DNA from: Chlamydiota bacterium
GTDB lineage: Bacteria; Chlamydiota; Chlamydiia; Chlamydiales; Rhabdochlamydiaceae
Length of the DNA stretch: 64,000 bases
Assembly: GCA_040388665.1 (NCBI GenBank)
Contig: JAZKBL010000012.1
Coordinates: 67,390-131,389 of the forward strand
Direction of reading: 5' to 3'
The notes beneath the pieces were generated by a model. The model saw nothing but the letters and a program-made list of their open reading frames with translations. It was not told the origin of the DNA and made no database searches. A program made the position numbers and the translations under genes. Each line of letters begins with the position of its first letter. Within the stretch, counting starts at the first letter, position 1. Positions 36,749-44,670 of the stretch are shown piece after piece.

Positions 36749-37582
36749 TTAACTTTCAGGTGTCACGCGGGAAATTTCACGCTGTTCAAGTTCCAAACGC
36801 GCTTCACTGTCGGAAACCCAGCGGTGTTCGTGAACAAGAATGGACAGTTGATAATCAGCTATTTTTTCATTAAGCTCCGGAGCGCTTGCCATAGGCACGT
36901 AGTGAAAAGCTGTACATGGGATTTCAAGCTCACAGCAAGTATCATCCACGCTTTGAATTTGCTTCGTCCGATCATCAACAAAAATAATCTTCTTGAGGGG
37001 CGTAGTAAGGCCTGAAAGAACCTCCTTTAGAACCGGTCCTTTTGATTGACATTCTGTCTCGATAACTCCCCCGGCATATTCATAAAGTGCTCCTTGAGAG
37101 AGCTCCGGCAGATCATTTTTAAAAGGTATTCCAAGAACTCGTAATATTTGAGCTCTTGAGCCCCTTATAGACGGATCCATGGCTACTTTCGTAAAAGCTA
37201 CCACCTTTATCCCAAGATCTTGCGCTTGTACAACAACTTCAGGCCACCGTGCATCGAGCAGCTCCCATTTACCTAAAGTGCCTAGAATAATCCTGTCAAA
37301 GGCAATTTTTTCTTCTCTTGAAATGTTGGGACAGTGCGTTTGAAACCACTCATATTTCCATGCCTCATGAGAGGGATGGAGAATGGCATCAGGATAGGCT
37401 AATAGGGTTCCACCAACATCCAAAAGAACAAGAGTCTCTCTTGGACTGTTTGCAATCTCCTGTTGAATAGGTTCTAAGAAAGATGCCGTTCGAATTTCTG
37501 CATATCCTACACAAAAGTTAATTAAGCAAAATAATCTGATCAATAGCTTCATGATAGCTCCTGCAAGTCTCTTAAACGACAC
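36749..37582 (-). CDS. exported HAD-superfamily-like protein (copy A)
   Basis: Signal peptide. 'LVLLDVGGTLL' is a motif I variant lacking the second Asp. 'IIFVDDR' is motif IV-like. Truncated paralog at 43918-44670. Confidence 0.55.
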   Translation of the reverse strand: MSFKRLAGAIMKLLIRLFCLINFCVGYAEIRTASFLEPIQQEIANSPRETLVLLDVGGTLLAYPDAILHPSHEAWKYEWFQTHCPNISREEKIAFDRIILGTLGKWELLDARWPEVVVQAQDLGIKVVAFTKVAMDPSIRGSRAQILRVLGIPFKNDLPELSQGALYEYAGGVIETECQSKGPVLKEVLSGLTTPLKKIIFVDDRTKQIQSVDDTCCELEIPCTAFHYVPMASAPELNEKIADYQLSILVHEHRWVSDSEARLELEQREISRVTPES

Positions 37583-42408: not shown

Positions 42409-42529
42409 AATATAACCATCCTTGCTGTTTTAATATTTAAATGGTATCAAAAAATATGTTTTATTAATATATAAACTTTATTTATTAAATTAATAATATC
42501 ATTTTTTTTTGTAAATAGCTAATAATAAA

Positions 42530-42760
42530 TTATTTAAAACAACATTCCGATTGGACACAGCCAAAAAAATCACGACAGAATTGAATCGAGTCCCCTTTGA
42601 GATCGCATTGTCGACACCAATATCTTCCAGTTTCTTTCCAAATGATGAATCGATCCTTTCCCCCACATTTTGGACAAGGAGAGTGATATTCTCCGCCGCA
42701 AGTAGATGCTATCCGTTTTGGAGAAATTCCTAACTCTTGAGCAAAATGAAGTAAACTCAT
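42530..42760 (-). pseudogene. N-terminal zinc-ribbon fragment of a P4-alpha/plasmid-type primase(-helicase)
   Basis: 'CPKCGGKDRF..GRYWCRQCDLKGDSIQF' is the primase Zn-ribbon pattern. The ORF stops after 76 aa with no Toprim or helicase part. Confidence 0.55.
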
Positions 42761-42810: not shown

Positions 42811-43047
42811 GTGACATAAGTGACAAGCGTGACTTATCTATAGAATGACATGTCACGGACGGTTTTTTCATGTGCGTGACACCGTGACAAAACTATTAGC
42901 TCCACACGGCCAAACCTCTTTTGTCACGCCTGTCACAGTTATAATCTAAAATCTCGTGACGGCAAGCAAGGCTATACAAGGACATCTATTTTCTCTATGC
43001 AGTCCGAATTCACACATTAGACTTGTCACAAGCGTCACGCGTGTCAC
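42811..43047. repeat. array of 12 GTGAC/GTCAC cores (iteron- or operator-like)
   Basis: GTGAC at 42811, 42820, 42829, 42876, 42884, 42956. GTCAC at 42852, 42923, 42932, 43025, 43034, 43043. Extended consensus sCGTGACa. The outer triplets (9-10 bp spacing) are mutually inverted. Palindrome TGACATGTCA at 42846-42855. Confidence 0.75.
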
Positions 43048-43069: not shown

Positions 43070-43885
43070 TTAAACATCTTCTTCCCCCAAAACCTTAGAT
43101 GTAAAAAGATAACATCGCGTTGTATTCTTCTTGCTTGGGAGGCGTTCGCTTCGAGTACATTCTCCTTGCGCACTTAGCTTAAGAAGTCCATGTTTTGCGC
43201 ATACTTTTGCCACAAGACTAGGGTCATACCCCTGACAGATTTCACTTTTATACCTCTCTGGAAACACGTAAAATTCAATCTCCTCATTGTTATTCCGCCT
43301 GAATCCTGTGCGATTTATCGTCTTAGTTTCACAAGATGCTTCCCAGAAAGTAAATCTACTTTCGCCATGTTGCTCAAAATAACGCTTTACTTGAGATAGT
43401 ATTGTGCTTTCCTCTTGAGATCCAACACCGCCCCGCACGCGTAACCATTCTTTAAAGCACTCTAAGGAGGCCTGAATGGCCTCTCCTTCATTCCACCCTG
43501 TAATTCCAAAACTTGCCGCCAATTCTCCTGCAACAGCAACTAATACAAAGCGATTCAGAACCCTCCCTACTTGCGCATCGGTATCAACTGGATAATGTTC
43601 CTGAACAAATCCACCAAAGATTTTTTTACCCATTTCAATAGCATTCGTTCGATCTGCGATCAAGCATTTGAGAAATTCACGACTAGCATTCCCGTAATAG
43701 GAACGGCATGCCGCTTCAAGAGCTTCCGCAAAAGCCTTTCCACTTTCAAAGCCGTGTAAATTCTCAAATATCCCAAACTTGCCAGTATCAGCAGGAATTT
43801 CGACAAGACGAACCTCCTGGCCAGCTCTCGTCCGTTTTCCCGCTTCTGACATATGTTGGCTTAAGGTTACCTCTCCAGTAGACAA
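43070..43885 (-). pseudogene. C-terminal fragment of a DUF927/COG5519-type primase-associated helicase
   Basis: 'RLVEIPADTGKFGIFENLHGFESGKAFAEALEAACRSYYGNASREFLKCL' matches my memory of the region after the ATPase core of DUF927 proteins. There is no ATPase or Toprim part upstream. Confidence 0.55.
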
Positions 43886-43917
43886 AAAAAACGATCGCCA
43901 AGATGCTTTACTCCTTT

Positions 43918-44670
43918 TTAGAGCGCCGTAAGAATCTGCTCGATTTTTACTTGCTTCATCCGATCGTCAACAAAAACAATCTTCTCAGGACGCATAGTAA
44001 GACTTGAAAGAATCTCCTTAAGAACCGGTCCCTTCAACTGACATTCTGTCTCAATGACCCCTTGAGCATATTCATAGAATGCCCCTTGAGAGAGTTCCGG
44101 CAGATCATTTTTAAAAGGTATTCCAAGAGTCCGTAATATTTGAGCTCTTGAGCCTCTCACGGAAGGATCCATGGCTACTTTCGTAAAAGCTATTACTTTT
44201 ACCCCAAGATCTTGCGCTTGTACAATAACTTCAGGCCACCGCGCGTCGAGCAGCTTCCATGTGTCTAAAGTGGCTAGAATAATCCTATCAAAAGCGATTT
44301 TTTCTTCTCTTGAAATGTTAGGACAATGCGTTTGAAACCACTCATATTTCCATGTCTCATGAGAGGGATGGAGAATAGCATCAGGATACGCTAGTAGAGT
44401 TCCACCAACATCCAAAAGAACAAGGATCTCTTTCGGACTGTTTGCAATCTCCTGTTGAATAGGTTCTAAGGAAGATATCGTTCGAATCTCTGCATATCCT
44501 GCACAAAAATTACCCAAAAAAATAATCCAATAAACAACTGCATCATGTTTTTTATATTCTTGCGGTATATCCACCACTCTCGAAAAATTAAAATCATAGA
44601 CTGCCGCCACCATCAACACAAAGAGTTTGACCTGTAATAAATCCAGCATCCTCAGAAAGCAGAAACTCAA
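43918..44670 (-). CDS. HAD-superfamily-like protein, copy B; 3'-truncated and with a replaced N-terminus (probable pseudogene)
   Basis: About 85-90% aa identity to copy A from 'GYAEIRT' to 'FVDDR'. Homology ends about 30 bp before its stop, next to the DUF927 fragment. No convincing signal peptide or start. Confidence 0.55.
   Translation of the reverse strand: MSFCFLRMLDLLQVKLFVLMVAAVYDFNFSRVVDIPQEYKKHDAVVYWIIFLGNFCAGYAEIRTISSLEPIQQEIANSPKEILVLLDVGGTLLAYPDAILHPSHETWKYEWFQTHCPNISREEKIAFDRIILATLDTWKLLDARWPEVIVQAQDLGVKVIAFTKVAMDPSVRGSRAQILRTLGIPFKNDLPELSQGAFYEYAQGVIETECQLKGPVLKEILSSLTMRPEKIVFVDDRMKQVKIEQILTAL

Follow-up and report, generated by a model that had tools for sequence, protein, structure and literature searches.

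A dense array of short sites between two replication gene remnants

The locus lies in a 64-kb window (the whole stretch of DNA analysed, C12:67390-131389; positions below are those of the window) of a genome that was searched at its full length of 1,757,651 bp in 73 contigs. On the minus strand, it contains the C-terminal remnant of a DUF927-type (SaPIbov1-Rep/Cch-like) Rep helicase (43070-43948), a 237-bp array of 12 short sites that is very probably an iteron-type origin (42811-43047), and the N-terminal remnant of a separate DnaG-like primase (42500-42760). The helicase stop codon occupies 43070-43072 and the first iteron lies 22 nt beyond it, while on the other side 50 nt separate the array from position 42760, where the zinc-ribbon open reading frame (ORF) of the primase begins. 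The array thus sits between a helicase C-terminal and a primase zinc-ribbon N-terminal fragment, as a preliminary description had it, with 22 nt in place of the 23 bp given there for the helicase side.

The array contains six GTGAC pentamers on the plus strand (42811, 42820, 42829, 42876, 42884 and 42956) and six GTCAC pentamers (42852, 42923, 42932, 43025, 43034 and 43043), so that the counts and positions reported earlier were recovered, and all 12 cores are perfect. The extended consensus sCGTGACa also holds, with C at position -1 and A at position +1 in 9 of the 12 sites each, and the palindrome TGACATGTCA is present at 42846-42855 as described. A quarter of all GTGAC/GTCAC matches in the window (12 of 49) fall within these 237 bp. 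Genome-wide there are 1261 cores, so that 237 bp should contain 0.17 by chance, and 12 or more would arise with a Poisson probability of ~1e-18; the enrichment claimed in the preliminary description therefore stands, while its chance figure of about 0.5 is replaced by this lower, genome-based value. A chance origin of the array is ruled out by the same probability. Apart from the array, no 240-bp stretch of the genome holds more than five cores, the density reached by two windows (C9:31957 and C40:13373).

These two five-core windows belong to a palindromic repeat that is unrelated to the array. The repeat, TTTGGAGTGCGGTGAC-nn-GTCACCGCACTCCAAA, recurs in the genome (C9:31950-32140 and C40:13400-13520), partly beside assembly gaps, and looks like a REP/MITE-type hairpin element. 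The array itself is single-copy in the genome, and membership in a genome-wide repeat family was rejected on these grounds.

Along the minus strand, starting at the helicase stop, the 12 sites follow the layout >>> < >> << > <<<, at offsets of 22, 31 and 40 (>), 109 (<), 133 and 142 (>), 181 and 189 (<), 213 (>) and 236, 245 and 254 (<) nt. The orientation string >>><>><<><<< is its own reverse complement and amounts to two iteron sets running in opposite directions. The helicase-proximal triplet of direct iterons (43025-43047, minus strand, sites at 43043, 43034 and 43025) is followed by a single inverted iteron (42956-42960, minus strand), a 19-bp spacer of 79% AT, and an inner pair of direct iterons (42923-42936, minus strand). 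Beyond a 34-bp central spacer come an inner pair of inverted iterons (42876-42888, minus strand), a single direct iteron (42852-42856) that overlaps the palindrome (together 42846-42856, minus strand), an 18-bp spacer of 78% AT, and the primase-proximal triplet of inverted iterons (42811-42833, minus strand). Both outer triplets are spaced at 9 bp and oppose each other, in keeping with the roughly helical spacing and mutual inversion noted earlier. The central spacer has 59% AT against 60% for the genome, so there is no large central AT-rich block, and only the two spacers of 18-19 bp reach 78-79% AT. The outer spacers are unequal (64 versus 18 nt); in several relatives, described below, they are equal.

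Both flanking genes are truncated

The helicase ORF (43070-43885, minus strand, 271 aa, TTG start) matches positions 653-893 of the 895 positions of phrog_1139, annotated as 'DNA primase', with an E-value of 7e-40. Homology to the helicase extends past the ORF to 43948, so that the remnant represents the C-terminal 271-293 aa. In a tblastn comparison it aligns to residues 307-598 of the intact 611-aa helicase of a related chlamydial MAG (locus L009) at 51% identity. The DUF927 domain of that intact homolog spans residues 41-319, outside the region aligned to the window fragment, and a Pfam search of the ORF returned no match, including none to DUF927 or a P-loop ATPase. The remnant thus retains the C-terminal helical region and the winged-helix domain and lacks the N-terminal ~306 aa that bear the DUF927/Walker-A part; it is homologous to the DUF927 family and too truncated to count as an intact, active Rep helicase.

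On the other side of the array, the 76-aa primase ORF (42530-42760, minus strand) matches Zn_Ribbon_Prim with an E-value of 3.6e-10 and has an intact CxxC...CxxC ribbon. The remnant aligns to residues 15-105 of a 353-aa zinc-ribbon and Toprim primase, the remainder of which is absent, and is 52-56% identical to the N-termini of the primases at L009 and L010; the intact homologs carry Zn_ribbon_DnaG and Toprim_2 domains. With its complete four-cysteine zinc ribbon and an ATG start, the remnant could be made as a small protein.

The break in the helicase gene can be traced at its edge. The adjoining DUF2608 (HAD-like) gene (43951-44546, minus strand) is a 3'-truncated paralog of a second copy in the window, with 86.6% identity over 597 bp to 36959-37555 by blastn and 84% identity between the proteins. 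The DUF2608 homology ends exactly at the start of the helicase remnant, which marks a rearrangement junction where the 5' half of the helicase gene was lost; as the DUF2608 paralog is truncated at the same junction, a single rearrangement cut both genes. For the synteny comparison with a genome of the same genus (G001), the contig is short and rearranged; G001 bears a different, intact element instead of the window module.

No second helicase copy was found in the 1.76-Mb genome. As both genes are truncated and neither has another copy, the origin would be an orphan relic unable to fire alone. The view that the replicon is dead is thereby borne out: the helicase lacks ~306 N-terminal residues, the primase ends at about residue 105, and the genome has no second copy of the helicase.

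Intact relatives keep the helicase-array-primase order

The whole genomes of relatives, together with a scan of one genome per species, yielded 80 loci whose helicases are homologous to the query at ~40-59% identity. Chlamydiota, Legionella and many Beta- and Gammaproteobacteria are represented, among other groups. Closer relatives of the window fragment were sought and none above 53% identity was found; a metagenome scan for a close intact relative of the element gave nothing above 46% identity.

Where a zinc-ribbon/Toprim primase accompanies the helicase, the two are separate, co-oriented genes with the helicase first (L009/L016, L017, L018, L019, L020 and L021). At L019 only an array of ~280 bp separates them, as in the window. 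The preliminary description had suggested that the order at the locus reflects a circular replicon linearised inside its own primase-helicase gene. Helicase, array and primase follow one another natively in the relatives, so circular permutation is not needed, and permutation of a fused primase-helicase gene was rejected because the flanks correspond to two separate genes in intact relatives.

Arrays directly past the helicase are a general feature of these loci. While no GTGAC arrays were seen beside the first seven homologous loci, arrays appeared once other cores were allowed: with any core permitted, a dense short-repeat array lies within 500 bp past the helicase stop in most loci. The cores vary by element (GGGGACA, GGGACA, GGGTAACA, GGCAACA, GTGGAA, GTGGCA, GTGAGA, GTGACA, CGAGACA and GGAACAC), with up to 16 copies per array. 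At least eight exact copies of one 6-mer occur within 370 bp past the stop in 30 of the 80 loci. As a control, every 400-bp window of each locus was scored; in 27 loci the densest has 10 or more copies of a single 6-mer, and in 22 of these 27 it starts within ~160 bp of the helicase stop. The search for arrays near intact primase-DUF927 genes, proposed in the preliminary description as a check, thus turned up such arrays at the same place.

The layout recurs as well. A triplet equivalent to the helicase-proximal one lies 4-60 nt past the helicase stop in most relatives, and the 12-site string >>><>><<><<<, or its flipped form, is found exactly in two loci besides the window (L064 and L075). 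Layouts off by one or two sites occur at L019, L047, L061, L063, L066, L071, L072, L080, L092 and L228; scoring by exact 6-mers undercounts degenerate sites, which bears on the tally of two exact loci and about 10 more that differ by one or two sites. At L019, L047, L064, L066, L075, L092 and L228 the shared layout is built from cores other than that of the window. Six-site variants also exist, namely L022 (>>><<<) and several loci with a 2+1+3 arrangement. GTGAC-core arrays directly past the helicase stop are found at L018 and L020 (Parachlamydiales) and at L031 (a gammaproteobacterial MAG), and the spacing '> 17-18 nt <<<' is common to the window array and those of L018 and L020.

At L018 (7802-8305) and L020 (7756-8274), the GTGAC array falls inside the 5' part of a conserved ORF of ~170 aa between helicase and primase. 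The two ORFs have kept the DNA cores but agree neither in frame nor in the residues encoded there (SDESDNVT versus RDRRDSVA), which points to selection on the DNA motif and not on the protein.

These comparisons also bear on what else the array might be. The preliminary description had named an autoregulatory operator as its alternative. In that case the sites would mainly serve to let the C-terminal domain of the helicase, or some other regulator, autoregulate transcription of the rep operon or of the downstream primase gene. Such a role would fit an array only 50 nt upstream of the primase start, as well as the few GTCAC sites just upstream of the primase start at L009, and dual use of sites as origin and operator is common among iteron initiators. 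Yet a zinc-ribbon primase lies downstream of the helicase in only 6 of the 80 loci, while arrays trail the helicase 3' end in dozens, including those without a downstream primase. Furthermore, the minus strand of the array has no predicted sigma-70-like promoter, a promoter and terminator scan gave nothing above shuffled background, and 12 sites in a dyad over 237 bp exceed what an operator needs. We therefore regard a primarily regulatory array as highly improbable.

Still further from the evidence is a partition (centromere-like) array, a set of integrase arm sites, or a feature due to chance or low complexity. Two sets of short repeats do also make up centromere sites, R1 parC being an example (PMC2241845). 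Against this, neither a par gene nor an integrase adjoins the array in the window or in the relatives (the integrases found at L009 and L019 are several kb away), the array is tied to the helicase 3' end, the genome contains no second copy of it, and chance is excluded as above. Partition and arm sites were accordingly rejected, and we give this group of explanations almost no weight.

Several further observations concern arrays of other kinds. At L009, from the group of the closest relatives (51% identity to the fragment), a TTTGA triplet stands at offsets of 19, 28 and 36 nt past the helicase stop (L009:7150-7195, minus strand), and only three GTCAC and two degenerate sites follow, at a distance of another ~1 kb and just before the primase gene; the origin of this element may be organised differently. 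In some elements a further dense array precedes the helicase gene by several kb, at positions ~1900 of L070, ~2700 of L030, ~4350-4390 of L062 and ~200 of L048; that of L070 consists of 10 copies of GGGGAC 5.8 kb upstream, and that of L030 of eight copies of GGGACA 5 kb upstream. These could be a second cis site like crr of phage P4, or part of a neighbouring element. In IMG/VR viral contigs, mixed-orientation GTGAC triplet arrays occur beside other helicase families (L179:7108-7351, L144:1178-1403, L172:2890-3153, L182:13609-13770 and L141:5073-5283), with neighbours that include an 821-aa zinc-ribbon primase-helicase (array 6 nt past its stop), VapE/DUF5906 helicases and an AAA_25 protein; the L141 array is near terminase and head-completion genes.

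The helicase family is also present on small records labelled as plasmids. In OX345456.1 (6,989 bp, Salmonella, labelled plasmid), a TOPRIM-DUF927 fusion gene is directly followed by a 12-site GGTAACA array of the same layout, and plasmid III of Legionella fallonii (14.6 kb, circular) carries an integrase and a DUF927 gene with a TGGGACA array after it. In pTAO100, a DUF927 gene was found without such an array, and a RepM gene is present.

The helicase C-terminus resembles SaPI-type initiators

A search of the intact helicase against PDB sequences gave two matches, SaPIbov1 Rep (8tch) and SCCmec Cch (5dgk). An AlphaFold2 model of the window fragment built on a 78-sequence alignment reached a mean pLDDT of 85.9, compared with 39.9 for the single-sequence model. 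The model ends in a helix-turn-helix plus hairpin, with helices at 209-216 and 222-231 and a beta hairpin at 244-261. Foldseek placed 8tch and 5dgk at the top, with a probability of 1.00, followed by TcpK (5vfx), a winged helix-turn-helix protein solved on oriT DNA. The cognate Rep is thus predicted from the model to carry a C-terminal winged-helix DNA-binding domain, as SaPI-type initiators do.

Across the C-terminal alignment, the highest mutual information with core class falls on fragment residue 246, in the first wing strand, and 9 of the 25 top columns lie within the last 50 residues. The window, L018, L020 and L021, whose cores are GTGACA or GTGGCA, have the wing motif TRSERLP in common; other pairings are TRTExLP with GTGAGA, TQKPR[LI]P with GGGGACA, and RRE[RY]LP with GGGACA. 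This covariation is suggestive only, since it is confounded by shared ancestry. The pairing does indicate that the helicase remnant and the array in the window are a matched pair from one element.

A further possibility arises from the state of the remnant: the truncated C-terminus might still be made and bind the array, the module being kept for a role in the host or against other elements: it could make related islands incompatible or titrate them as they arrive, or it could act locally as a roadblock. The frame is open over 298 codons, every one of the 12 cores is perfect, and the cognate wing motif TRSERLP is still present. At columns conserved in the family, the fragment departs from the consensus at 3 of 47 positions against a median of 2 in intact homologs, i.e., it is no more deviant than they are and shows no visible decay. 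Recent truncation, however, accounts for the same facts and is the simplest reading of the lack of decay. The different intact element carried by G001 in place of the window module, and the ceiling of 53% identity among relatives, also speak against retention, and we consider it highly improbable.

Comparison with known replication systems

The closest parallels are the staphylococcal pathogenicity islands (SaPIs), in which a SaPI-type Rep and origin are already known. The C-terminal winged helix of SaPI Reps reads iterons of five or six nucleotides, and the origin comprises 6-12 iterons immediately downstream of rep, running in opposite directions and split by an AT-rich region (PMC9371898; PMC7581432, the latter citing the origin work of Ubeda et al. 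2007). In a 2026 preprint, four C-terminal domains of a Rep hexamer sit on origin DNA with the wing in the major groove, one of them swinging out to an inverted iteron, and melting is reported at AT-rich inter-iteron segments too (10.64898/2026.10.17.759575). The '>>> <' units of the window array would fit this picture. In Gram-negative PICIs, too, the origin is reported to lie downstream of pri (PMC10111431).

As in SaPIs, the array begins directly past the rep gene (22 nt after the stop in the window, compared here with SaPIbov1 Rep, 8tch), its 12 GTGAC cores fall within the 6-12 penta- or hexanucleotide iterons that SaPI origins spread over ~240-300 bp, and two opposed iteron sets include single inverted iterons beside direct runs. 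By analogy, the initiator would likewise be a hexameric helicase that loads itself and has its winged helix at the C-terminus; in both systems the primase is encoded next to the helicase. The predicted fold of the fragment matches 8tch, but with only ~11-12% identity over the aligned fold. Unlike the SaPIs of Staphylococcus, the window element resides in a Chlamydiota host (a Parachlamydiales-like MAG), has its primase gene downstream of the origin and of the DnaG-like type (zinc ribbon plus Toprim), where the SaPI primase is encoded upstream of rep, and lacks the large central AT-rich block. The window copy is, in addition, truncated and cannot be active.

Phage P4, an integrase-bearing satellite, offers a related case: the C-terminal domain of its primase-helicase alpha binds short repeated octamers in an origin near its gene. 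Alpha is an SF3 (D5-like) fusion and needs a second cis site, crr. The P4 origin-binding domain was not among the Foldseek matches of the window fragment at E <= 0.001. Like SCCmec Cch (5dgk, DUF927), the initiator of the window element belongs with the DUF927/MCM-like helicases of integrative elements. No origin is defined for Cch itself (PMC7581432). The C-terminal domain of Cch2 does bind short direct repeats (AAGTG) immediately past its own gene, in an origin with three iterons in contrast to the 12 in the window, and Cch2 is of the Primase_Cterm class (PMC7581432).

Classical iteron plasmids (pPS10, F and R6K) share with the window array the principle that repeated initiator-binding sites define the origin. 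They differ in their direct repeats of ~17-22 bp, a non-helicase WH1-WH2 Rep, DnaA boxes and loading of host DnaB (PMC4980987), while the window sites, each of ~8 bp and spaced at 9 bp, form a dyad, and the helicase doubles as the initiator. Assignment to the Rep_3/RepA type, with 17-22-bp direct repeats by a RepA gene, does not fit sites of ~8 bp in both orientations whose neighbours are a helicase and a primase.

A probable SaPI-type origin orphaned by truncation

Taken together, we are confident, short of certainty, that the array is a complete SaPI-type iteron origin of an integrase-type mobile island, orphaned when the helicase was deprived of its ATPase half and the primase of its Toprim half. 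The earlier proposal of an iteron-type origin is upheld to the same degree by the uniqueness of the array, its position past the helicase stop, the same layout in relatives and the fold match. The analysis itself shows how many sites there are, how they are laid out and where they lie with respect to the genes, as well as the homology of both flanks, the return of the layout in relatives and the likeness in fold to SaPIbov1 Rep and Cch. That the C-terminal domain would bind the sites, and that a double hexamer would load and melt the DNA, follows from published SaPI work.

In the live element, the initiator would have been a DUF927-class, MCM-like, self-loading Rep helicase as in SaPIbov1 and SCCmec. 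By analogy with SaPIs, Rep hexamers would bind the 8-bp iterons (core GTGAC) through the C-terminal winged helix, probably with one hexamer per six-site half (3+1+2 and 2+1+3), and would distort the short AT-rich spacers, melt them and self-load onto the DNA. The DnaG-like primase encoded just downstream would then prime synthesis. In this genome both genes have been cut by rearrangements, the helicase losing its ATPase half and the primase its Toprim half.

A bolder interpretation, which we advance tentatively and think unlikely, is that the 12-site dyad (3+1+2 and 2+1+3), with its distribution from Chlamydiota to Proteobacteria and its core and seven-residue wing changing together, is a template for double-hexamer loading in which six C-terminal domains of each hexamer occupy six sites; and, separately, that the orphan domain and origin have been kept as a working module, for example one that excludes related islands. 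If the loading-template interpretation is true, these loci would serve as a natural data set on the 'recognition code' of self-loading helicases of the DUF927/MCM-like type.

For the uncultured chlamydia-like bacterium itself, the array is the trace of an integrative replicon that has decayed, within a region undergoing rearrangement, and has no evident present function; what is an established Rep/origin system in staphylococcal pathogenicity islands is present here as an orphan in a Parachlamydiales-like MAG. For the family, the DUF927 Rep helicases of many Gram-negative and chlamydial islands have a SaPI-like origin just past their gene, often with 12 sites and with element-specific cores, which gives annotators a simple rule for locating origins in such islands. 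The part of most use is the cross-phylum 12-site layout with its co-varying cores and wing motifs, as it provides dozens of natural helicase-iteron pairs that bear on how the winged-helix domain reads its site and how two hexamers sit at the origin, both questions raised in the SaPI structural papers.
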